DNA of 64,000 nt from a virus, in IMG/VR virus record IMGVR_UViG_3300037258_000301, positions 1 through 64,000 of that record, one strand, 5' to 3'. A program made the position numbers and the translations under genes. This document shows, piece after piece, positions 49,572 to 63,809 of the stretch. The notes beneath the pieces are model-generated. The model was not told the DNA's origin. It searched no databases and saw only the letters and a program-made list of their open reading frames with translations. Numbering within the stretch: position 1 is the stretch's first letter; every line of letters begins with the position of its first letter.

Positions 49572-49754
49572 ATGGATCCTTTGGTGCGGGTGGCCTACGA
49601 GGGGTACGGCGAGCACACCCATTGGCTGACCTTCGACGGCCGACCTATGCCCTCCTGGGCCGCGCTGACCCCTCGTACGAGGGATGCCTGGGCGGCTGCC
49701 ATTGAGGCCGTACTGAAAGCACAGGGCGGAGAGACGGATGTGGCACCCCTCTGA
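49572..49754 (+). CDS. small phage protein
   Basis: AYE.Y...G.PMPSW..L...AW motif. Confidence 0.65.
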   Translation: MDPLVRVAYEGYGEHTHWLTFDGRPMPSWAALTPRTRDAWAAAIEAVLKAQGGETDVAPL

Positions 49755-52700
49755 TCGGCTGTTCGCGCACTACGCGGCCGAGCAACCACAGGAGAGTGAG
49801 CCCGTCGCGGACGTCTCCGACCTGCCGCACACGTGCTCCTACTGTGGCTCCCAGGAGTTCGAGCAGCCCGAAGACACCGGGCGCGGTCTGCGGGCCATCT
49901 GCTCGGCCTGTGGGGGCGCCATGCTGCGCACCGAGGATGGTCAGTGGAGTCCGGCCGGTCTGAACGCCACCCACAACCACCCGCGCCCGGATGGTGACCC
50001 CGCTTCCGGTGGTGTCGGGGGCGCCGCGAACGTCGGTGTGGACCCGGACCGGATGAACGACGCTTCGGCCCGGCATGGATCACTCGACGTGATAGCGGCG
50101 CGCGCGTACCAGGACGATCCCTACGTCATGGCGAAGCCGGGCGACAAGGTACCGTGCCCGACCTGTGACGGCCACGGATCCTACGAGGAAGACGAACCCA
50201 AATCGGACGGGCAGGTCGCGCGCGAAGGTATCCCCGACGACGCCCCCGAGGGGGACTTCTACAACACCGTCACCAAGCCGTGCGAAGACTGCGATGAGCG
50301 TGGCTACCACGTACGCCAGACCGACCGGGAAGAGTTGGATACGGCCCGCGCCGAGGGCAACACTCAGTACGTCAAGGACTTCACCGAGAAGCACGAGGAC
50401 GAACCACACCCGGACCGCGTCAAGATGCCCTCCTGCCCGCCGGAGTGCCGCTTCCCGACAGCCCGCCGGGTTCACACACCCAAGCTGAGCGCGCTGAACG
50501 ACGAAGTTCCGTGGTGCGCACACCTCTACCACGGCAACTGCACCTACCCGGGCGACAAGCTGCCCAACGGCACCGTCCTCGGCATCCCGCAGGACCGGGG
50601 CCCGTGCCCGTGGAAGCACAACGCCTTCCAGCAGGCCGCGTGCCCGATCTCCGCGCCGGGCCCGATGGCCGTCATGCAGGTTAGTGCGGCACTGCACGAG
50701 GCGATGCCGTCACGTAAGCATCCGGCACCTGAGGACTTGTCCTACGACACCTATCACCCGAAGCCGGGCGAGCAGTACTTCGACGAGGCCGAAGAGAGCA
50801 ATCCCGGCTGGTCCCACCATCTGCTTCGGGCTCACCGCTCCAGCGTGGATGTTGGCGGGTCGCAACCGCACATGGTTGGCAGCGTCTACTACAGCCACCA
50901 GCCCGACGGTCCCGTGCCGATGGTCAAGGTGCACAAAATGCTCGTCGGCCACCAGTATCGCAGTCAGGGCGTGGCCAGCGCGATGCAGGACGAGTTGCAT
51001 CGCCAGTATCCGGGTCACTTCATCGACCACGGGGATCGGACGGCGGACGGCCACGGCTGGGCCTCCCAGTACGAGGCGCCCTCAGATCACATCATGTCGC
51101 AGGTAACCGGGATGATGAAGATTGTGGCGTTCTCCTGGGACGAGATCGGTGATCGTCACCCGCACATCTACGGTGACTCCGAGATTCACGGAGAAGCCGC
51201 CGATGGGGCCGACGGTCCCGGTATCGGTGACGCGGCGAACTACCTCGCGCACGAACGTCCCGACGATCCTGACGCCGAGCACCACTCGGTGTACGACATG
51301 GACTTTCATGAGGAGCACGTCGACCCGCGACACATCGACTACTCCCCTTCCGGCCGTGACGACTACCGGGTCAGTCATGCGATGGAGGGATACCGTGAAC
51401 ATCCCGACACAATGCCGCCGCTGGTGCTGGTCAAACGCCACCACGTCTACCAGGTCGCCGACGGCCACCACCGGGCCGAAGCCGCCGACGCGGTAGGGGC
51501 TCACGTGCGTGCCTATGTGGCTCACTCGCCCTATCCCGACGAGCCTTTCCGGGACGGCGAGAAGGGGCCTTTCCATCGCGCGGAACCGATCGATGAGGCT
51601 CTGCACCACGAGGCCGCCTGGGCCGACGTACGGAACAAGGCCAAGAGGATCAGGCGTGAAGGCGGCGTTACCATCGTCGTCGCCTCGACCGACGGGGTGG
51701 CCGGCGAGGTCCGGGGCGACACGCACGTCTACGAGACCGCGATCACCTGGGTGCCCGGCACCACCCGCACCGCCTACTGGACCTGTGGGTGCATGTACGG
51801 CGCTTACGCGCACGGTCCCCGCTGGGATGATCGGCCGTGTAGCCACGTGCTGGCCATGCGCTTCGAGGCCCAGTCCCGTTCGGCCCACGGTCGAGAGATC
51901 GAAGTCGACCAGAAACGCCCGGAGTGGCTCAAGCCGCAGACTTCAGTCATGGTGCAGTACGAACGGCCGAGCGAGGATCATCCGCAGGGTCGTGACCTGA
52001 CTCGTCGGGCCGTGCCGCCGGGCAATATGCGATCCACCTGGGATTCCCGATCCCGCACGAGGAGGTCTTCCTTGGAACGCACAGCGGCCATCGCGCAGGC
52101 CCAGGCCATGTTCGCCGAGGACCAGGACCCGGCCGAGGTCATCGAGCAGCTCGTGGCTACGGGTGCGACGCGCCTGGAGGCCCAGGTCGTCGTATTGGCC
52201 GCACGTGGTCGCATGGCCATCGTGCACACCGGCAAGCGATGCCCCGAATGCGGCGCTGAGCTGGACTCCACGGCTGGCCAGTGTGATGAGTGCGGTGCGG
52301 TGCTCGCGGACCGCAGCATCACGCACAGGGCCTCTTGGGGTGATGACGAGCAGCGGTGCCCGCACTGTGGTGGCTACATCGGTCCGTCGGCGTTCAAGGT
52401 CGGGAAATGCCCGCACTGCGGTCACGCGCTGGCCCACAAGACTGGTGCCGCTGACCATGGAGTGTGGTACCACGGTGCCCCTCCTGAGCGCGCAGAACAA
52501 GTACGACGAGAGGGTCTACCGAAATCCTACGGTGGCGAGTACGACCTGCGCCTGACCAGCTCTCCGCAACAGGCCAAGATCTATGGCGACATGCCTGGAC
52601 ATGGGGCGAACGCCACCGTCTTCGAGTTCCACATTCCGCACAACCATCCGGCCCTGCATCCGGTCTACGAGCACAACCTGTTCGATGAGCGCGCCCATGG

Positions 52701-54687
52701 CGTTGCCCTGAAGCAACCGCTGGGCCCTGAATACATCGCCGCCGAGCACAAGGGCACCGATCACATCGCAGCAGCCATTCCGCCCGGCTACGAGGGCGCG
52801 CAGGGGCCGTTCGAGGACGAGTACAGCGAACCACACGTCTACGCGCGTGACATCCACAGCGGCGCCGGCAACTGTGTGTGCGGGGGTGGGCTCGGTGACT
52901 CCATCCACCTCCAGGCCGCGCCCGGCGTCGATGTGCCCGAGCACCAGAGGACCGCTTCCAGCGATCTCGACTACCGCCCACACCGCACTCAGGATGCCCG
53001 CTCAGACGCGCCCATCTTCGGCAAGGGGGTCGACGACTGGGGCCTGACCCTGGTTGACTGCCCGCAATGCGGTGGACAGTCCGGTTGCGGCCACTGCGGG
53101 GGGACCGGGCAAGTGATCTCCACCGGCGACACCACGGCCAACCCGACCCCCGACCAGAACCCGGTGGCCGGCGACACCATCCGCGAGGATGGCATCTCCG
53201 ACACCAGCGCACTGCATCATGAGGCGATGAATGACTACGCCGATCCGATCAGGGGCAAAGTAGGTCCGAAAGTAAATCGGGTCAAGGGTTCGCAGGTACA
53301 ACCGGGGCACGTCATTCCCATGCGGCCCGATCCGTACAACGTAGGCGATTCGTATGCATGGCAGGAAGTTGCTCATAAGGAGCGTTGGCCAGAGGGCAAT
53401 AACTACAAGATCACGAACTCCTCTGGCTCGCACTACACCGTGGTGAGTCCTCACGAGTACGTGCAAGTTCATTCCGATACAGGGCCTGAGCACACGGCGG
53501 CCAAGACGCAATCGGGCCCTTCGGTTGCTGGAGTTGCTCTCAAGGCCGCTGACACGGGCCGCATCCTGATGCTCCAACGCGGCCTGGAGGACGAGAAGGA
53601 CCCGGCACGCGGTCTATGGGAGCATCCCGGTGGCCACATCGAGCCCGGCGACAAGACCACCCTCCATGCTGGACTCAGGGAGTGGGAAGAAGAGGTTGGT
53701 CAGCCCTTCCCCGAGGGTGGCGTTGTTACTCACGCCTGGACGAGTCCGAACGGTGTCTATCAGGGCCATGTGGTGGTGATTCCCCGCGAGCGCGACCTGG
53801 TCATGCATGACGGTCGGGTAGTGCCGAACCCGGATGACCCCAAGGGGGACAAGGCGGAACAAGCGGCCTGGTGGCATCCTGATCATGCCCGGAAGAACCC
53901 AGCCCTGCGGCCCGAGGTCAAGGCCACTCCCTGGAACAAGATCAAGGAGGCTGGAGTCGACGCCGGCCTGAAGGTCGCCGCATTGCTCTCACGTGAAGGC
54001 GCCGCGTGGGACAGCCTGTACTCATTGGAGGAGAGCCAGCCGGTCACACCGCCGCCGCACTCGAACAGCGAGAACCCGGCCAGTACCGGCTTCCTCACCA
54101 ACCAGGATCCCGCTTCCTGGTCCGAGGTCACCAAGAAGCCGCATCACTTGCTGCCGGCCGACTCGCTGGACTCACCGCTGGCCACACTGCACTCCGTACC
54201 CGAGGGCGCACTCCCGTTCACTGACGGAGACGCCGAGGACTCCACGTCGGGCACCGAGGACCCCTACAACAGCCAGACCGATACCGAATCGCTCGACGGG
54301 GACACCGACACCATCCCGGATGCGGAGATGGAAGGCTCTCCCATGGAGAATCTGGGCGGGACAGCCAAGCGTTCGGTCGCGGAGATCGTCGAGCAGTTCC
54401 AGCGCACGGCGGGGGCGGTAGCACTTCAGTCCGGTAGCGAAGGAGGTAGTGACGTGGGATTCTCCGACGGTGAGATCGCGGCCAAGGCCAAAGAGCGGCT
54501 GGCCGGCATGAGCAAGACCGCACTCAAGAACTTCAGCTTCGCCGAGCAGCAGGAACTGATCGGAGAGGGGCAGGGTTCCCGGGCCAGGAATTTTGGGGAC
54601 CTATCCCTCTCCGGAACGCACTATGAGGCGCTCCAACAGGCATTGGACACTGCCGGAGTGAACGATGACGACATTCTGATCCTGTGA
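49738..54687 (+). CDS. 1649-aa polyvalent protein: Zn ribbons, GNAT-like, ParB/Srx-like, SWIM, ADP-ribosyltransferase-like, Nudix
   Basis: V.HQYRSQGVASAM; PPLVLV...VADGHHRAEAA; WTCGC...CSHVLA; WYHG...GL...LTSSP..A..Y; PGGHIEPGD...GLREWEEEVG. Confidence 0.8.
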   Translation: MWHPSDRLFAHYAAEQPQESEPVADVSDLPHTCSYCGSQEFEQPEDTGRGLRAICSACGGAMLRTEDGQWSPAGLNATHNHPRPDGDPASGGVGGAANVGVDPDRMNDASARHGSLDVIAARAYQDDPYVMAKPGDKVPCPTCDGHGSYEEDEPKSDGQVAREGIPDDAPEGDFYNTVTKPCEDCDERGYHVRQTDREELDTARAEGNTQYVKDFTEKHEDEPHPDRVKMPSCPPECRFPTARRVHTPKLSALNDEVPWCAHLYHGNCTYPGDKLPNGTVLGIPQDRGPCPWKHNAFQQAACPISAPGPMAVMQVSAALHEAMPSRKHPAPEDLSYDTYHPKPGEQYFDEAEESNPGWSHHLLRAHRSSVDVGGSQPHMVGSVYYSHQPDGPVPMVKVHKMLVGHQYRSQGVASAMQDELHRQYPGHFIDHGDRTADGHGWASQYEAPSDHIMSQVTGMMKIVAFSWDEIGDRHPHIYGDSEIHGEAADGADGPGIGDAANYLAHERPDDPDAEHHSVYDMDFHEEHVDPRHIDYSPSGRDDYRVSHAMEGYREHPDTMPPLVLVKRHHVYQVADGHHRAEAADAVGAHVRAYVAHSPYPDEPFRDGEKGPFHRAEPIDEALHHEAAWADVRNKAKRIRREGGVTIVVASTDGVAGEVRGDTHVYETAITWVPGTTRTAYWTCGCMYGAYAHGPRWDDRPCSHVLAMRFEAQSRSAHGREIEVDQKRPEWLKPQTSVMVQYERPSEDHPQGRDLTRRAVPPGNMRSTWDSRSRTRRSSLERTAAIAQAQAMFAEDQDPAEVIEQLVATGATRLEAQVVVLAARGRMAIVHTGKRCPECGAELDSTAGQCDECGAVLADRSITHRASWGDDEQRCPHCGGYIGPSAFKVGKCPHCGHALAHKTGAADHGVWYHGAPPERAEQVRREGLPKSYGGEYDLRLTSSPQQAKIYGDMPGHGANATVFEFHIPHNHPALHPVYEHNLFDERAHGVALKQPLGPEYIAAEHKGTDHIAAAIPPGYEGAQGPFEDEYSEPHVYARDIHSGAGNCVCGGGLGDSIHLQAAPGVDVPEHQRTASSDLDYRPHRTQDARSDAPIFGKGVDDWGLTLVDCPQCGGQSGCGHCGGTGQVISTGDTTANPTPDQNPVAGDTIREDGISDTSALHHEAMNDYADPIRGKVGPKVNRVKGSQVQPGHVIPMRPDPYNVGDSYAWQEVAHKERWPEGNNYKITNSSGSHYTVVSPHEYVQVHSDTGPEHTAAKTQSGPSVAGVALKAADTGRILMLQRGLEDEKDPARGLWEHPGGHIEPGDKTTLHAGLREWEEEVGQPFPEGGVVTHAWTSPNGVYQGHVVVIPRERDLVMHDGRVVPNPDDPKGDKAEQAAWWHPDHARKNPALRPEVKATPWNKIKEAGVDAGLKVAALLSREGAAWDSLYSLEESQPVTPPPHSNSENPASTGFLTNQDPASWSEVTKKPHHLLPADSLDSPLATLHSVPEGALPFTDGDAEDSTSGTEDPYNSQTDTESLDGDTDTIPDAEMEGSPMENLGGTAKRSVAEIVEQFQRTAGAVALQSGSEGGSDVGFSDGEIAAKAKERLAGMSKTALKNFSFAEQQELIGEGQGSRARNFGDLSLSGTHYEALQQALDTAGVNDDDILIL

Positions 54688-55981: not shown

Positions 55982-56431
55982 ATGAAGACGCTTGGAGCGT
56001 GGCTGAAGACCACGATCAAGACGTGGATCAAGTTCGATGATTCTCAGTCGCGCCTGATCGTGATGACCATCGTGTTCTTCTGCCTGGGTATCACCCTGTG
56101 GCTGCAACCCAGCAGGTTCCACAACACGCCCTCCTACGCCAATCTTTTGGCGTTGATCCCTACGGAGGGGTGGGGATCCATCTATCTGACTACGGCAGCA
56201 CTCTGTACTAGTTGCATCGTGAGCTATCCCCTCCGGTGGCTGACTACCGTTACGCATACGGTAGGAATCACATTGCTCGGGGTGTGGTGGTTGGCTTTTT
56301 GGATTCGGTGGCTAACGGATGGGGGGACGACAATCGTCAACGTACTGTCGTGGGGGGTGTTTCTTTACCTCATGGTCCGATCGGCCATGAAGCTGGATGA
56401 CCAGGTGAGTACTCCAGGAGGGACCCCTTGA
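55982..56431 (+). CDS. four-TM membrane protein (holin candidate)
   Basis: AGGAGG RBS, four hydrophobic helices. Confidence 0.6.
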   Translation: MKTLGAWLKTTIKTWIKFDDSQSRLIVMTIVFFCLGITLWLQPSRFHNTPSYANLLALIPTEGWGSIYLTTAALCTSCIVSYPLRWLTTVTHTVGITLLGVWWLAFWIRWLTDGGTTIVNVLSWGVFLYLMVRSAMKLDDQVSTPGGTP

Positions 56432-56811
56432 TAGATGCCTCCACTCTCACCAACATCGTCGCCGTAGCGGCAGCAGTTGCCGGGACGATCGGCATCCCGC
56501 TTTGGAATAGGCATCGGGCGAAGACGAAAGAGCAGGACATGACTGACGTGGTGTCCTGGAAGGAGATCGTCAAGGCATTGCAGACAGAAGTCGCTCGACT
56601 GAGAACTCAGCTGCGTGACTCGGAGCATGATTATCAGAAGCAACTGGACGATATGGGTAGCAAGCACCGAGAGCAGATCAAGACGTTGGACTCCGATTGG
56701 GAAACCCGGATGGCCACGGCTCAGACTCGGATGGCCTCGATGGAAAGTCAGATCACGGTCCTGAACCAGCAGTTGACTAGTGCTCTACGTGGCGGAGGAA
56801 GCTTGTCGTGA
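56428..56811 (+). CDS. N-terminal TM plus coiled-coil protein
   Basis: Single TM then heptad repeats, typical of lysis-cassette membrane proteins. Confidence 0.65.
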   Translation: MIDASTLTNIVAVAAAVAGTIGIPLWNRHRAKTKEQDMTDVVSWKEIVKALQTEVARLRTQLRDSEHDYQKQLDDMGSKHREQIKTLDSDWETRMATAQTRMASMESQITVLNQQLTSALRGGGSLS

Positions 56812-57149
56812 GCGGTCCCGGGTGGGCATTGTCTGCCGTGTACCTCTTCGTCAGCCTGGAGAGCGTCCTCATCCAGGTGCTATCGCTGCTACGCCTACGG
56901 GGAGGCAAGCGGGATCTCACCCATCGCCACCTGGTACGTACCGTCCTGACCCGAGTGATCGTGATGTCGGTGTACGTGGGAGTGGGTGTCACGAACTTGA
57001 TCACTCATACGCTGTTGTCGATTCCGGCACTGGCGATTTTCACGGGGGCGGCTCTGGTGTGGCAGGTCAACAGCTTGCTCGACGTGCGACTTCGGAACAA
57101 GCTCAACGGTCACTCCGACGTCTCATCCACCACCGCGAATTCTCGATGA
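56808..57149 (+). CDS. three-TM membrane protein
   Basis: Hydrophobic segments; GTGA overlap. Confidence 0.65.
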   Translation: MSGPGWALSAVYLFVSLESVLIQVLSLLRLRGGKRDLTHRHLVRTVLTRVIVMSVYVGVGVTNLITHTLLSIPALAIFTGAALVWQVNSLLDVRLRNKLNGHSDVSSTTANSR

Positions 57150-57355
57150 GCAACCGCTGGGTGATCAAGGTCCTCGATGAGAACCGGGTCGACTTGTTGC
57201 GCTCGGGCCGGCAGGTACGCGCCGAGGTGAGTCCGACCGAGGCCAAGCGCTACCTCAAGGCCCACGCGGCGCCCGGCGATGTGGCGTTCACCGAAGACCA
57301 GACCGGGTATCGCACCCGGCTGTCCCCTCGTCAGCCGCGCCGCCGTAAGCGGTAG
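57146..57355 (+). CDS. small basic protein
   Basis: ATGA overlap. Confidence 0.6.
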   Translation: MSNRWVIKVLDENRVDLLRSGRQVRAEVSPTEAKRYLKAHAAPGDVAFTEDQTGYRTRLSPRQPRRRKR

Positions 57356-57372
57356 AGGAACGAGGAGGCCCC

Positions 57373-60300
57373 GTGCTCAAGTACGCGACGCTGGAGATCC
57401 TGGACGCCCGTATGGGGCATCCCAATGTACGACTACGCACCGCGCACCGGGCCGTGTTCAACTACATCCCCCGCGAGGGCTACCTCTACGTTCGCTCCCG
57501 AGCCATCAGCAGCAGGACCAACGACAACTACGACCACTTCTCGGCTGAGGAGATCAAGGGGAACGGCAGCACTACGGGCTACAAGACCTTCATCGGCAAG
57601 CCCGTCTTCGTCAATCATCACAATGAGGATCATCGCCGGATGCGTGGCGTCATTATTGACGCGGTGTTGCATAAGGACCGCAATCCCGATGGCTCACCGG
57701 ATACCTGGTCCGAAGTGTTGATGGAAGTCGACGCGGTGCGCTTCCCGAAGTTGGCCCAAGCAATTTTGGCTGGCCACATCGATCGCACCTCGATGGGTGT
57801 CGATGTCGAGCGGAGCACCTGTTCAGTGTGTGCCAATGTCGCCCAAACCCCCAGCGACTACTGCCGACACATCCCCGCGATGAAGGGGAAGCGTTACCAG
57901 TCCGTCGATTACAAGACGGGCGCGAAGAAGACCAATCTCGTCTATGAGAAGTGCGCCGGCCTGAAGTTCTTCGAGAACAGCCTTTTGGTCGAGGAACCAG
58001 CCGACCCATCTGCATATTTGCTTGATCATCCAGTATTGGGGCCCGGATTAGAGCACATGCTTCCACGTACGGCCAGCTCTAATGGACGAGATGGTCATGT
58101 CGGACACTCCGAAGCGGTCTCCAATTTCTTTCATGGTCAACTGACCACGCCTGGTTCGACCACGCCCAATCGCCACCCGAGGCAACAACTCCCGCTTGAT
58201 GAGTCGAACATCCTCTTCAGTCAGAGTCGCCCAGGGGTTGCGGGAGCCGGGCAGGCTTCTTCCGCGAATCACCATGTCTCGCGAGTTGTCGGCGTTGGAC
58301 CCCAGCAGCCAGTGGTGGCGGTTATGGCAGAGGGGGACATCGCAGGTATGCCGTACCACGTCGCCAGGCGGAATGGGACCGACCAACGTTTCGTAGCCCC
58401 ACCGATGGGAGCGCACCGAGGATCGCTTGGCGTCGTCCAGGGACAGACGGCCGTACCCGTTGCCGAAAGTCCCGCCAGTCCACAGATGGCAAGCATCAGG
58501 ACCACCGCTGGTGTCGATGCTGGCCAGGTAGCGTTCCAGGACGGTTTTGGTTCGAACGAAAGTGCCATGTCGGGACCTGCTGACCATAGCCTTCATATTA
58601 GCAGAACTGCTATGCACCGCGCCGACGCACTGATCATGCGCAAGACCCGTGCGGCCGACCTCTCCGACGAGGATCTAGTGGACACCGACGAAGAGCTGAA
58701 GCAGAGGGCCCGCATGCTCGGCAAGCCAGGTCAGGTTTCGAAGATCCACAAGACCGTGCAGCAGGAACGCAAACGTCGGGTCGGAGCGGTGGACCCTCGC
58801 ATCTTCGATGTGCCGGCCGACGCCTCTCCCGGATTGCCTCGTTACACCTCGGCCGGGGCATGCCCGGCTTGTCGAGGTACCGACACTATCCGGGTCGAAT
58901 CCGTTCGTGAATGCGGCGAATGTGGACACCTCTGGATGGTCGCGATGGTCGATCCGGACCAGCTGCTCGTCCAGGCCGCTCCACGTCACCAGGACCCGGC
59001 TCAGCACCCCTGGTTCCAGGCCAATCCCGTGTCCCATCAGCATGTCGTCGACATGTGGAACAAGGCCACGCCGGATGAGAAGAACTCTGGTCGTCGCTGG
59101 TACCCGGATGCTCACTTGGTGGCTCAGTCTCTGGGTAAGTTGCACCCTGACCACCCGCTCAACGGTGGTACCAAGACCGAGAAGCATGCCTACGTCGACA
59201 ACCCCGACGAGACTGACCAGAAGCACACTCACATGGCTGCCGGTGTGTTGGCCACCTACTCACCGCAGAGTCCGTGGACAACCAACATGCACAACGCGGC
59301 CCGCGCCCTGCACGAAGGCAAGGGCATCGGCGGCAAGGGCGGCGGCGTGATGGCCTCCCAACAGCAGTCCGACTCCGCCAGTCGGATCATGTCCGGCGAG
59401 AAGTACACCGACGTACTCAAGGGCCCGAAAGTCAGCGACTTCGCTCATTTGATCGAGCACGGCGGCGATGAGCATGCTGACGACCCTCATGTGGTCGTCG
59501 ATCGACATGCCCTCTCGGTGGCCACCGGGAAGCGCATGACCGAAGAGGACTACAACAGCTTCCCCAAGTCCAACCGGCATTACTACGGCCACGTCGTGCA
59601 GGCATACAAGGACGCGGCTGACCAGATCGGCCGCAAGGGCGGCGAACCGATCGCTGGACACCAGGTGCAGGCTGCCACCTGGTTGGCTCAGCAGCGGCAC
59701 AACCAGGCGTCCGAACGGGCTATCCAAGGTCAGGACAGTAATGTCGACCGGCTGAACAAGGGGCGTGAGCGCTCTCGGCAGCGGGCCGAGGAAGGGTGGT
59801 CCCAGTTCAAGCAGGAGCATGGCCTGAGTATTGGCGGTGAACCCGGCACCGGTTACACGGCTCGCAAGTTGGCCTACGGCGAACAGAAGGCTCCTGCTGA
59901 TGTGGATACTCTGCGGGACGAATCCTGCCCGATCTGTGGTGAGTCCACGGCTGCCTATGACGGTCGCAACTGCGGTGTCTGTGGTTGGGAGGCCCCGCCG
60001 AAGATGTTCGCCGATCCTGATCTGGAGATGGCCAAGCAAGTCGACCTGCGCAAGGACGTGCTTGACCCATCCGGACAGGACGGCACTGATGTCGGCGACT
60101 TCGCCGACGAGTCCGCTGGTGGCCTGGAGGTCGGTGAGGATCAGCCCGACCTGGTCTGTGACAACTGCGGTACTACGTTCGATGCGGGCCAGCCGCAGAC
60201 CACCAACACCGAGGATCCCGAGGCGGGCGATCGCGGTGACGGTCCGGCCGAGGGGGACGTCTGCCCCGAGTGTGGCGTGGGTGAATTGGTACCTCCGGAC

Positions 60301-60624
60301 GTCCTGGAGGGTGATCAGAATGAAGAAGGGCCTGAGGGATCCCTGGAGGTCGGTCCCACGGATGATGTGGATTCTCAGGGTGGGAATCCCAACGCCGTCG
60401 ATCCGAGCGGATTTGAGCAGAGTTCCGACGTGCAGGACGAAGAAGAGCCCGAGGTCGATGAGGATCAGGACTCCGACAATCCATTCGCCAAGGGAGATGC
60501 CTCTTCCGACGATGAGGACGAAACAGGCGAGGACGAAGACGAGGACGACGTTCCGCCGAAGAAGGCCAAACCCCAAACCAAGCACTCGCTGCGCGATCGC
60601 GTCTTCGGACCTCGGAATAGGTGA
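57373..60624 (+). CDS. prohead (capsid maturation) protease polyprotein with glycosylase-like domain, Zn ribbons and acidic tail
   Basis: N.NYD.F...KTFIGKPVFVNH...TSMG..V..S.CSVC...C.HI...FFENS.LV.EPADP; position before scaffold and MCP. Confidence 0.8.
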   Translation: MLKYATLEILDARMGHPNVRLRTAHRAVFNYIPREGYLYVRSRAISSRTNDNYDHFSAEEIKGNGSTTGYKTFIGKPVFVNHHNEDHRRMRGVIIDAVLHKDRNPDGSPDTWSEVLMEVDAVRFPKLAQAILAGHIDRTSMGVDVERSTCSVCANVAQTPSDYCRHIPAMKGKRYQSVDYKTGAKKTNLVYEKCAGLKFFENSLLVEEPADPSAYLLDHPVLGPGLEHMLPRTASSNGRDGHVGHSEAVSNFFHGQLTTPGSTTPNRHPRQQLPLDESNILFSQSRPGVAGAGQASSANHHVSRVVGVGPQQPVVAVMAEGDIAGMPYHVARRNGTDQRFVAPPMGAHRGSLGVVQGQTAVPVAESPASPQMASIRTTAGVDAGQVAFQDGFGSNESAMSGPADHSLHISRTAMHRADALIMRKTRAADLSDEDLVDTDEELKQRARMLGKPGQVSKIHKTVQQERKRRVGAVDPRIFDVPADASPGLPRYTSAGACPACRGTDTIRVESVRECGECGHLWMVAMVDPDQLLVQAAPRHQDPAQHPWFQANPVSHQHVVDMWNKATPDEKNSGRRWYPDAHLVAQSLGKLHPDHPLNGGTKTEKHAYVDNPDETDQKHTHMAAGVLATYSPQSPWTTNMHNAARALHEGKGIGGKGGGVMASQQQSDSASRIMSGEKYTDVLKGPKVSDFAHLIEHGGDEHADDPHVVVDRHALSVATGKRMTEEDYNSFPKSNRHYYGHVVQAYKDAADQIGRKGGEPIAGHQVQAATWLAQQRHNQASERAIQGQDSNVDRLNKGRERSRQRAEEGWSQFKQEHGLSIGGEPGTGYTARKLAYGEQKAPADVDTLRDESCPICGESTAAYDGRNCGVCGWEAPPKMFADPDLEMAKQVDLRKDVLDPSGQDGTDVGDFADESAGGLEVGEDQPDLVCDNCGTTFDAGQPQTTNTEDPEAGDRGDGPAEGDVCPECGVGELVPPDVLEGDQNEEGPEGSLEVGPTDDVDSQGGNPNAVDPSGFEQSSDVQDEEEPEVDEDQDSDNPFAKGDASSDDEDETGEDEDEDDVPPKKAKPQTKHSLRDRVFGPRNR
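58048..58587 (-). CDS. HNH homing endonuclease with C-terminal HTH, nested antisense in protease gene (start 58587, 58596 or 58617)
   Basis: CHLWTG...GYG...HR...GPIP.G.VVRHTCD...C.N..H...G...DN..DM...GR; EIGDRFGVS..TIS.I..GRTWKH. Confidence 0.9.
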   Translation of the reverse strand: MVSRSRHGTFVRTKTVLERYLASIDTSGGPDACHLWTGGTFGNGYGRLSLDDAKRSSVRSHRWGYETLVGPIPPGDVVRHTCDVPLCHNRHHWLLGSNADNSRDMVIRGRSLPGSRNPWATLTEEDVRLIKRELLPRVAIGRGRTRRGQLTMKEIGDRFGVSDMTISSIRAGRTWKHVL

Positions 60625-60658
60625 CCCACCAGCAATGATCGAAGGAGAAGAGTAGATC

Positions 60659-61576
60659 ATGGCCATGCGTCCCACGCTTCAGGCGCTTGCTGAACAGCAG
60701 CAGGAACTGAATGCTCTCCGCAACACTGTCGGTGCTCAGGCTGCCCAGCTCACTCGGCAGGCCAGCCAACTCGCCGCACAGGGCACCACCATCGAGCGTC
60801 TCGGGCGTGGCCTGTTCTCGCTGGCCTCCATGGCGGGCGGTGACGTGCAGTCCAAGATTGCCTCGGCCATGCTCAAGCGGGCCGACGTGCAGAACCCGGC
60901 CCAGCCGGTACCTGAACCGCCGGCCGGACCGCCCACCGAGTCCACCCAGGAAGCGGAAACTCCGGAAGCGTTCGCCAACGTTCAGGATCCCGGTCTCGTT
61001 CCTGGATCCACCAATGACGTGGCAGCCGATGCCACCACCACCTCCTACACGCCGGGTATGGATATCGCCAGCCAGCCCTTCCACCAGCTCATCGACGTCA
61101 CCCAGCCAGTCGACGGAACACAGAACCCGCGCCCGCTTCAGGAGACCAAGACGCTCACCGATGTGCGCGTGGGGGATCCGATGAACCCGCAGACCGCGTT
61201 CCCGCTCGGAGGCGAGTTCGCCAATGCGCAACGTACCTCCAGCAAAACCGCAGCGGCCGATGCGTCCCGACGCACCATGGCCTCTCTGCGACTGGCTCGG
61301 CTGCGTCTTCAGGCCGGTACCGCCGAGGGCGAGTCGGACTTCGTGGTCGCCGCGATGATCGAAAAGGATGCTCAGGTGTCCACGGCCGCGATCGAGCAGG
61401 AAATCTCCACGCTGGAGAACGTGAAGAAGGCGGCATCCAGTCGTGCAGCCAACGCTCGACTGGTACCGAAGTCGGCCAACCGGCAGCCCCGCCCCTCCCT
61501 ACAGGGAGGCACTTCACACACCGCCAGTGCGGCTCCCGTGAGCACGGAGACTGAAGACGCCGACTTGTTCGATTAA
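60659..61576 (+). CDS. putative scaffolding protein
   Basis: Coiled-coil N-terminus, ends DADLFD; between protease and capsid genes. Confidence 0.65.
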   Translation: MAMRPTLQALAEQQQELNALRNTVGAQAAQLTRQASQLAAQGTTIERLGRGLFSLASMAGGDVQSKIASAMLKRADVQNPAQPVPEPPAGPPTESTQEAETPEAFANVQDPGLVPGSTNDVAADATTTSYTPGMDIASQPFHQLIDVTQPVDGTQNPRPLQETKTLTDVRVGDPMNPQTAFPLGGEFANAQRTSSKTAAADASRRTMASLRLARLRLQAGTAEGESDFVVAAMIEKDAQVSTAAIEQEISTLENVKKAASSRAANARLVPKSANRQPRPSLQGGTSHTASAAPVSTETEDADLFD

Positions 61577-61586
61577 AGGTCACGGG

Positions 61587-62009
61587 ATGGCCGATGTGAC
61601 GTCCTCCGAGGAAGTGCAGACGCCTATGTTCGTGTCAGCAGCAGAGTTTCACGACTCCATGTCCCGGACCCACCACCAACTGGCGCAGGTCTGGGACCAT
61701 ATCGGAAGATTGGAAGCACGAATGACTGACTTCACCACGGCGCTGTCGGACTTGGATGCCGCCGACGCCAGCATCATCAGCGAGCTGTCCGCTCTTGTCA
61801 CCCAGGTGCAGACCCTCCAGGGTCAGATCACCAGTGGTGACACTGCTGCCGCTGCGGCGCTGGCTGCTGAGATCGAGACTCGGGTCACCGCCCTCAACAG
61901 CGCGGTACAGAGTGCCCAGTCCACCCTCAATCCGGCCCCGTCCGGTGATGCGAGTACTGCTCCCACCGATCCCACCACTCCGACCGACCCGGCTGCTCCT
62001 GCGGCCTGA
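61587..62009 (+). CDS. small coiled-coil protein (may start at 61722)
   Basis: Heptad pattern, Pro/Thr tail. Confidence 0.6.
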   Translation: MADVTSSEEVQTPMFVSAAEFHDSMSRTHHQLAQVWDHIGRLEARMTDFTTALSDLDAADASIISELSALVTQVQTLQGQITSGDTAAAAALAAEIETRVTALNSAVQSAQSTLNPAPSGDASTAPTDPTTPTDPAAPAA

Positions 62010-62176: not shown

Positions 62177-62698
62177 ATGATCCGGACACCGCTGAATCTC
62201 AGCTACATCAAGCGTGAGTTGCGCCCGCTGTACGGCTGGTCTCAGGCGACGCCGAAGGCTGCTTTCGTCGATCCTTCGTGGACGTCATCCGTTGACATCT
62301 ATCCCGGCATGGTCATGCAGAAGATGTTGGGCGACAACGTCACTCTGCTCAATGCCTCGGGTACCCCGTATGGTCTCGCATCGTTCCTGATGGCCCCCAA
62401 GCTGGGCATCGACGAGATCACCGAGACAGGCGTCAACGCCTGCGCGGTATGGGTTATGGGTCCCGACGCCGAGTTCGAGATCCTCGCGCCGTCATTCGAC
62501 ACCACGGCGACCTGGACCGACCCCGGCAACGGCACCACCGCCTTGGTCTACGCGTACACCACGGGGGCCTATCAAGGCGTGTTGTGCCCCTCCACTGGTT
62601 CGCAGGGCTCCGTCAGTGCACTTCCGGTCGCCCGGCTGTTGCAGGTGGCCTCGACATCCAAGATCCGTATCGGCGGCCTTCAGGCCCGGACTGCGTGA
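62177..62698 (+). CDS. capsid decoration/minor head protein
   Basis: GGGAGG RBS; directly upstream of MCP; beta-rich. Confidence 0.65.
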   Translation: MIRTPLNLSYIKRELRPLYGWSQATPKAAFVDPSWTSSVDIYPGMVMQKMLGDNVTLLNASGTPYGLASFLMAPKLGIDEITETGVNACAVWVMGPDAEFEILAPSFDTTATWTDPGNGTTALVYAYTTGAYQGVLCPSTGSQGSVSALPVARLLQVASTSKIRIGGLQARTA

Positions 62699-62708
62699 GG
62701 GAGTGACG

Positions 62709-63809
62709 ATGACGAACACTTTGGTTCGCACCAGCGCCCTCGGGGGCCGGATCGCGAAGAAGTCTGACGACTACGTGTCGCAGATCCTGGCCCGTCGTGA
62801 GAAGAGCGGTGCGCTCTCCCACGAAGCCAAGGTCGACAAGCTGGCACTGATCCTCTCCGACGAGAGCAACGGCATCAAGCGTCTCGGCGTCGGCATGATC
62901 GGCCCGATTCAGCTCAAGCTGCGGTATCAGGGCATCACCCGCAACGTGCTCATCGAGGACCCGGTCACCCCGGGCACCCCCGTCGAGTACGACGTGTGGG
63001 ACGACCTTGGCCAGGCATACATCATGTCCGGGCACGAGGGCGAAGTCCGCATCACCCCGTTCGAAGGCAAGCGCGTTCCGATCCGGTTCTTCCGTATCGC
63101 CTCGCGCCCCGCGATCCGCAAGGAAGACCTGTTCTACCTGCGGATCAACGCTGTCGAGCAGGCGCAGGACGAGACCAAGCAGGCCATCCTCAAGCAGGAA
63201 GACTCGCGGCTGCTCGTACTGCTCCAGTCCGCCGCGAATGCCTACGCCACGCGGCCGGACCACGTCATCACCCCGAACCACAACGTCACGGAGGCCAGCG
63301 GATACTTCACCCCCGCCGGCCTGTACGAGGCAGTTCGTCAGACCGACATGCACGAGTTGCAGTCGGCCCGCATTCTGGTGAACCCCTACGACTTCCGTGA
63401 CTTCTACCAGTGGGACATCAACACCACTGGCTGGGCCTTCAAGGACAGGGTGGTGGCCGGAGAGACCATCACCACGTTCGGTGAGTTCCAGTTCCAGCGG
63501 TCGATCATGGTCCCCGCCGGCACGATGTACCTCACCCCGGAGCCGAACTTCCTCGGCGTCTTCCCGGTTCTCTACTCGCTCGATGTCGAGGAGAACCACA
63601 ACGTGGAGGCGTTCTGGAAGGGCTGGGTGTTCGACGAGATGGTCAACATGACCATTCTCAACCCGCGTGGCATCGCTACCGTCACGAAGGCGTCGGAAGC
63701 GCTCTACTCCGACCCGACGTCGCTCGGTGGTGCCGCAACCGGCCTCACCTCGCCGCCGGCCACGGAGTCCGCGCTCAACCCGCCAGGCGCCTACACCACC
63801 TGGCCGTGA
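62709..63809 (+). CDS. major capsid protein (HK97 fold, Bxz1-like)
   Basis: MIGPIQLKLRYQGITRNVL.ED, FEGKRV, LRINAVEQAQDETKQAILKQED, ILNPRG; strongly biased codons. Confidence 0.9.
   Translation: MTNTLVRTSALGGRIAKKSDDYVSQILARREKSGALSHEAKVDKLALILSDESNGIKRLGVGMIGPIQLKLRYQGITRNVLIEDPVTPGTPVEYDVWDDLGQAYIMSGHEGEVRITPFEGKRVPIRFFRIASRPAIRKEDLFYLRINAVEQAQDETKQAILKQEDSRLLVLLQSAANAYATRPDHVITPNHNVTEASGYFTPAGLYEAVRQTDMHELQSARILVNPYDFRDFYQWDINTTGWAFKDRVVAGETITTFGEFQFQRSIMVPAGTMYLTPEPNFLGVFPVLYSLDVEENHNVEAFWKGWVFDEMVNMTILNPRGIATVTKASEALYSDPTSLGGAATGLTSPPATESALNPPGAYTTWP

Follow-up and report, generated by a model that had tools for sequence, protein, structure and literature searches.

An antisense HNH endonuclease gene in codon register with the open prohead protease gene of an actinophage

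The prohead protease gene of an actinophage carries on its opposite strand an intact HNH endonuclease gene, and the protease reading frame runs without interruption across it. The stretch that we have studied, hereafter called the window, comprises the initial 64,000 nucleotides of IMG/VR record IMGVR_UViG_3300037258_000301, a viral sequence of 151,624 bp classed by CheckV as complete. The anatomy of the locus recurs in related phages and has empty counterparts; the nested gene avoids particular codons, is the selected frame inside the insert and is exchanged as a cassette among alleles. We consider it probable that these features reflect a backwards, in-register insertion of an HNH gene which is read through unspliced by its host, has a promoter of its own and spreads by homing. 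In the mechanism that we propose, an HNH homing gene of the free-standing type would have entered in reverse orientation the linker following the protease domain, the element having shrunk to an ORF with a leaderless promoter of 13 nt and little else. The codons of the two genes being in register, selection would exclude TTA, CTA and TCA from the HNH gene, with one codon at the left junction doubling as its stop. Straight translation of the host message would then yield a polyprotein with a disordered spacer of ~180 residues between protease and cargo, involving neither RNA nor protein splicing. The nuclease itself would be made from a separate antisense transcript, probably leaderless, and would spread by its predicted cleavage of insertion-free alleles close to the conserved 3' terminus of the protease domain. 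The coordinates of the features discussed below are collected in table 1.

Table 1. Features of the locus, in window coordinates.
Feature	Position	Strand	Evidence or remark
Host gene, prohead protease-cargo polyprotein	57373..60624	+	ORF of 1083 codons; PHROG and Pfam matches
Head maturation protease domain, aa 27-214	57451..58014	+	phrog_18299, E 2e-27; phrog_2774, E 1e-51
HNH-HTH homing-type endonuclease gene, 179 aa plus stop	58048..58587	-	PHROG HNH families, HTH match, homologs
Dual-use codon	58048..58050	both	TTA, Leu226 of conserved GPGL(E/D)H; reverse TAA, HNH stop
Inserted segment, 180-aa spacer of the host frame, aa 230-409	58060..58599	+	Gap versus P0003-P0008; ends ambiguous by a few codons
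-10 box TAATAT, putative promoter of leaderless antisense mRNA	58595..58600	-	7 nt upstream of ATG 58587
C-terminal cargo: helical segment, Zn ribbons, DUF7178, acidic tail	58600..60624	+	
DUF7178, aa 615-774	59215-59694	+	Pfam PF23802, E 2e-32
Major head protein gene	62616-63809		~2 kb downstream of host gene; phrog_2522, E 1e-102

The host gene is identified as a prohead protease both by its profile matches and by its position in the head module. In the AlphaFold prediction the protease domain has pLDDT values mostly of 65-95, while those of the cargo reach 90-98 over aa 540-780, DUF7178 included. Alignment to insertion-free homologs shows that the cargo is continuous with the protease in the empty alleles. 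Long proteins with an N-terminal head protease are normal for this phage group, the same kind of fusion being present in Cluster C mycobacteriophages, for example gp249 of Tonenili, which has 1236 aa and lies just 5' of the capsid gene. Upstream in the head region of the window, a protein of 1649 aa (49738-54687, + strand) contains a NUDIX domain together with double Zn ribbons; in the related phages P0069 and P0091, NUDIX is fused to the protease-DUF7178 protein instead. Cargo domains thus appear to shuffle between these two giant genes. Contigs of ~150 kb that encode the protease-DUF7178 protein occur in many Streptomyces and Kitasatospora assemblies (P0062-P0115), one of them labelled as a plasmid, which suggests that phages of this group persist as extrachromosomal elements.

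The central claim of the preliminary description, namely an intact HNH gene nested antisense within an open protease-gene frame, is borne out: both ORFs exist, the HNH identity is supported by PHROG profiles and the codons of the two genes are in register (58048 - 57373 = 675 = 225 x 3). The nested gene lies directly 3' of the protease domain, inside the linker. Its product matches PHROG endonuclease/HNH families (1872/59/826) with E values of 3e-25, 3.5e-22 and 1.2e-21, and profile searches of PHROG and Pfam place a helix-turn-helix at its C-terminus. The match of the window protein to Pfam HNH_3 (PF13392) scores 22.0 bits, below the cutoff of 24.8, and a precomputed match to this family is present in most of its close homologs. 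The candidate catalytic and metal-binding residues H61, H80, C82, D83, C87, H92, N101 and D104, deduced from the alignment rather than from structure mapping, are among the columns that are invariant in 15 alleles. The 14 homologs compared here are 61-73% identical. The extent first assigned to the ORF, 58048-58617, needs shortening: this segment of the minus strand is indeed open, encoding 189 aa from a GTG, but the conserved N-termini of the homologs and the conserved -10 box indicate that the protein starts at ATG 58587.

The latter element also bears upon the expression of the nuclease. In the allele alignment, the motif TANNNT is found exactly 7 nt before the ATG or GTG in all 13 alleles whose start is present in the sequence, and the start is fixed at 58587 because of this conserved spacing. 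The extended -10 box initially proposed before ATG 58587 is therefore retained as a TANNNT element, but its TG extension is not conserved. The HNH start has no Shine-Dalgarno sequence, and a TANNNT placed 7 nt before a start that lacks such a sequence is the layout of actinobacterial leaderless transcripts. Scanning of 57300-59300 with the sigma-70 consensus returns no -35/-10 pair, and a terminator scan of the same region returns a lone terminator-like hairpin at 57634-57649, outside the insert. The nuclease is probably made from its own antisense, leaderless transcript, the conserved motif being its putative promoter.

The limits of the insert are defined by its empty alleles, in line with the alignment to insertion-free homologs that had been recommended as a check. 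The closest homologs, P0003, P0004 and P0005 (67-73% identical), are uninterrupted and read ...LGPGL(D/E)HL-AK(T/I)AVHRAD..., and the protein alignment shows that the window and P0002 (74% identical) are longer by 180 codons exactly at the HL-AK point; a gap at the same site appears when the DNA junctions are aligned with the empty alleles L004 and L005. Presence and absence thus concern one site, with precise empty alleles. The insertion itself is therefore confirmed, but its size is ~180 codons (58060-58599) and not the ~190 codons originally estimated. These ~540 nt are nearly all occupied by the HNH ORF, the final four codons of which, stop included, fall in host sequence. The dual-use codon that results at this junction is CTA (reverse TAG) in L003, and CTG, which gives no stop, in the empty L004 and L005. 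In each of 13 tabulated alleles the nuclease gene terminates on the reverse of a Leu or Ser codon of the host, and its C-terminal tail is longer or shorter accordingly.

The primary sample used to evaluate recurrence consisted of 14 loci retrieved by an HNH protein search, the sampling of which is independent of the state of the host frame. It was taken as unbiased because a search with the host protein is blind to broken alleles, all its best 120 matches carrying the protease domain. The HNH relatives are 61-82% identical and come from metagenomes, a MAG contig and a 152-kb contig of Streptomyces sp. NBC_01242. The latter (L012, JAPEOV010000003, 152,561 bp) has the same arrangement, and its public annotation lists both overlapping genes; this Streptomyces strain is the nearest lead to a host that can be cultured. 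In all 14 loci an intact HNH gene lies antisense and in register directly behind the protease domain, within an open host frame. The HNH gene is likewise intact, and the host frame open, in two further loci found via the host protein, so that stops fail to interrupt this frame in any of the 16 occupied loci examined, as the earlier interpretation demanded of homologs. A spacer at aa ~221-410 is present in 13 of the best 120 host homologs. Downstream of the HNH gene the cargo is diverse (36-49% identity or unrelated), and the sequence that constantly accompanies the nuclease is ...FFENSLLVExPADPTA..., the conserved 3' terminus of the protease domain; because this terminus is constant while the cargo varies, we infer that the target of the nuclease lies there. 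Among isolated phages, megablast of 56500-61600 yields no match and tblastn with the HNH protein yields only free-standing homologs of less than 40% identity, the nested layout being absent from that collection. Gene callers are inconsistent at L013, L014 and L024-L027, where they report either one long host ORF without HNH, or HNH with a host ORF shortened to a later start; the host frame is open across HNH in these loci despite the split calls. Since either the nuclease is overlooked or the host gene is shortened by such callers, insertions of this kind are probably under-annotated in high-GC phages.

The significance of the open host frame has to be evaluated against base composition. In L010 (1-3519, 71% GC) the in-register antisense frame of the entire host gene of 1153 aa is open for 1172 codons, which cautions against attaching weight to the mere length of antisense ORFs at such a composition. 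Given the codon usage of the hosts, with DNA of 62-71% GC, the chance of an open in-register antisense frame is 0.15-0.76 per locus, and free-standing HNH homologs at a GC of 0.65 are stop-free in antisense as well (4/4). The product of the per-locus probabilities (1e-4) was set aside, as it involves pseudocounts and assumes independence, and tests on codon families were used instead. These tests consider TTA, CTA and TCA, the sole sense codons of HNH that give stops in the host frame. None of them occurs in the 13 HNH alleles, against a raw expectation of 36.2 that is derived from the use of A-ending codons in the other four-fold families (3-19% per allele, at least 8% in 12 of the 13). Calibration with the ratio of observed to expected codons, which is 0.36 both in host genes (19/52) and in free-standing HNH controls (6/16.8), lowers the expectation to 13.2; the Poisson probability of finding zero is then 2e-6, a significance that is overstated because the alleles are related. 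If every combination of alignment column and third-base state contributes a single count, codons ending in A amount to 0/101 in Leu CTN plus Ser TCN versus 66/473 in the other four-fold families (Fisher's test, 2.7e-6), and this conservative count, which damps shared ancestry, gives a P of 0.0055 after the 0.36 calibration. There is thus reasonable evidence that the openness of the host frame is more than an effect of high GC and that selection keeps this frame open. From such selection it would follow that ribosomes read through the insert and that the downstream cargo matters, the host mRNA presumably being translated straight across the HNH gene.

Inside the insert, the substitution pattern shows the HNH frame as the one under selection. 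Comparison of the window with L003 indicates that the number of substitutions per codon is highest at host position 3 on both sides of the insert (0.39 in the protease, 0.45 in the cargo) and, in the spacer, at host position 1, which corresponds to HNH position 3 (0.38 per codon). Between the same two loci the HNH protein is 82% identical versus 56% for the spacer peptide. Because substitutions are concentrated at HNH position 3 and the nuclease is so much better conserved, the spacer peptide is a passive by-product of the HNH gene. Profile searches of PHROG and Pfam find no family match for the plus-strand frame of the insert. AlphaFold, run with 60 sequences, renders aa 233-404 as coil lacking secondary structure between a confident protease and a confident cargo, with a pLDDT of 25-30 that is partly lowered by the thin alignment in this region; the model is consistent with a spacer that is disordered and tolerated between folded domains. 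The previous suggestion that the antisense peptide becomes the spacer of a polyprotein agrees with the empty alleles, the 16/16 open frames, the avoidance of stop codons, the substitutions following the HNH frame and the predicted disorder, from which its translation is presumed. Its companion, that R-T-A-type sites bracket the insert, does not survive the comparison of alleles. PRTAS is the antisense of the conserved AGRTW at the HNH C-terminus, SRTA corresponds to the host AK(T/I)A and their resemblance is a coincidence; no R-T-A motif is common to the junction peptides of 13 alleles, others reading for example APRAARLD, TPRHAKLD and TPGLSLPD. A cleavage motif of the T4 or phiKZ type at GPGLE/H was also rejected, since close relatives have D or G in place of the required Glu.

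The preliminary description had noticed no intron or intein marks, and all the searches conducted since are in accord with it. An Rfam scan of 56500-60000 detects no intron at E<=10, and the RNA fold of the insert has a z-score of +0.92, no better than that of shuffled sequences. A group I or group II intron was therefore rejected, both a ribozyme core and an unusually stable fold being absent and the ORF-filled insert leaving no space for a ribozyme. No intein or Hint domain is recognized by Pfam and PHROG in the plus frame of the insert, and the residues at its junctions, ...EHM/LPR... and ...SLHI/SRT..., do not suit an intein; this candidate was equally discarded, true inteins of relatives being detected by the same means. 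Having neither a Hint domain nor a ribozyme, the insert is probably never removed. Of the inteins detected, the one in P0006, a relative of the protease gene, precedes C(R/K)HIP and matches PF05203 plus PF14890 (columns ~175-570 of alignment A1), while that in L016:1540-1801 ends ...VVHN/CYGL in the same gene that also holds an antisense HNH. Because inteins occupy two other sites in relatives, the protease gene is a hot spot for selfish elements of different strategies.

Comparison of alleles also reveals how the cassette behaves. Over 752 nt of cargo DNA, L013 and L016 share an identity of 99.2% that breaks off abruptly ~100 nt before the HNH start, and their HNH cassettes are only 78% identical; the length of the divergent flank differs by 57 nt, a multiple of three. 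The distribution is sporadic, with the closest relatives empty and hosts of 36-49% cargo identity carrying HNH proteins that are 64-72% identical. Horizontal movement is indicated both by the L013/L016 cassettes and by this excess of HNH identity over that of the host cargo. The sharp break, together with a distribution in which close relatives lack the HNH gene and distant ones have it, points to an actively exchanging cassette; exchange among alleles is apparent from the sequences, and would proceed through homing by the HNH protein.

Two other readings deny that the insert is translated as a part of a continuous polyprotein. The open frame might be a by-product of composition, the host gene then being split into a protease with a junk tail and a cargo that is either dispensable or translated from an internal start of its own. 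The per-locus chance of openness and the stop-free free-standing HNH genes of similar GC agree with such a split, as do the callers that divide L013, L014 and L024-L027 into HNH and a shorter host ORF. However, these calls reflect annotation rather than stop codons, the avoidance of TCA, CTA and TTA is significant even after calibration, all 16 loci are open and the empty alleles are single continuous ORFs. Moreover, inspection by eye finds no Shine-Dalgarno-like motif before the in-frame ATGs 58612 and 58636 from which an internal restart could proceed. We consequently judge the split unlikely. Still less credible is the removal of the insert as RNA, either by self-splicing of an intron, degenerate or of a novel type, that contains an antisense ORF or by host-assisted processing. 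There are group I introns elsewhere that harbour homing endonuclease genes in antisense, and divergent ribozymes can escape computational searches; yet the HNH coding sequence fills nearly all of the insert at the expense of any ribozyme core, the Rfam and folding results are negative and an intron needs no stop-free host frame, whereas stops are selected against here. These arguments render RNA removal highly improbable.

A further alternative considers that the HNH gene has ceased to be a homing element and has been domesticated for the benefit of the phage, for example as a packaging-associated nuclease or for antisense regulation of the late head operon. The location in the head module and the conservation of promoter and ORF in all alleles would fit this possibility, and a passage of PMC11855218 cites HNH proteins that assist terminases in some phages. 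The sporadic presence with empty close relatives, the divergent cassettes within near-identical flanks and the occupancy of just 13 of the best 120 host homologs are, on the other hand, all typical of a selfish mobile gene, and make domestication quite unlikely. A selfish antisense gene that is read through in register by its host remains the preferred interpretation.

Homing endonuclease genes are thought to survive within genes only via an intron or intein, or by splitting the gene. Those borne by inteins and group I introns show the same evolutionary behaviour as the present element and also target conserved phage genes, but they rely on a Hint domain or a ribozyme that this insert does not have. 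According to a review (PMC2988022), free-standing homing endonuclease genes are located between genes or split a host gene. The resemblance to mobE in nrdA of Aeromonas phage Aeh1 and to the seg and mob genes of T4 consists of a promoter-bearing nuclease gene without splicing element that lies beside a conserved target and spreads with flanking DNA. In contrast with the single open host ORF described here, however, those genes are intergenic or break the host into pieces that are translated separately.

The ShiLan domain provides the closest precedent, being an HNH inserted out of frame on the same strand of an actinophage methylase gene, with a stop-free host frame and no detectable splicing element (Gosselin et al. 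2023, PMC9957025; Arsenault, Gosselin and Gogarten 2025, PMC11855218). How its nuclease is translated is unexplained, leaderless initiation having been invoked (PMC11855218). The two systems share an HNH gene within a coding gene of actinophages, the lack of added host stops, of intron and of intein, a sporadic spread of the homing kind and a presumed read-through; our locus thus has the stop-free insertion without splicing domains but not the alternate frame of the same strand. In ShiLan the HNH occupies another frame of the same strand in a loop of a methylase, whereas the present gene is encoded by the other strand, in codon register, with its own conserved -10 box and a host codon as its stop, within the linker of a structural polyprotein. 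The 2025 paper does not contain the words 'reverse', 'antisense', 'opposite' or 'complement' and mentions no case on the opposite strand (PMC11855218). The 'third route' of neutralized insertion claimed at the outset therefore stands as a splicing-free, in-frame antisense solution, but it is not wholly new given the same-strand precedent published in 2025 (PMC11855218). The present locus is an antisense variant of hidden HNH insertion in a new host gene, to which it adds a putative promoter, a borrowed stop and a signature of selection.

It constitutes a cleaner version of presumed read-through than ShiLan, for it combines the opposite strand, a conserved putative promoter and a measurable codon signature in a structural gene of the head module. 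The read-through idea is also directly testable, as one mutation can be silent for HNH and nonsense for the host. Whether antisense in-register insertion into linkers represents a general third way for homing genes beside introns and inteins, maintained by selection on synonymous codons and favouring shrunken elements with a borrowed stop, is in our opinion evenly balanced; the same applies to the possibility that the spacer may serve as a tether or cleavable linker in the loading of cargo into proheads.

Some neighbouring ORFs deserve mention. Between genes of the head region, a coiled-coil ORF of 127 aa (56428-56811, + strand) has weak matches to Rz-like spanins (E about 2e-4), and the ORF of 149 aa that precedes it (55982-56431) looks hydrophobic when judged by eye. 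Beyond the window, ~2.6 kb past its end, two further HNH-like matches to the nuclease, with 40% and 30% identity, lie at 66579-67226 of G000:C1 within a single 266-aa minus-strand ORF of the same phage.
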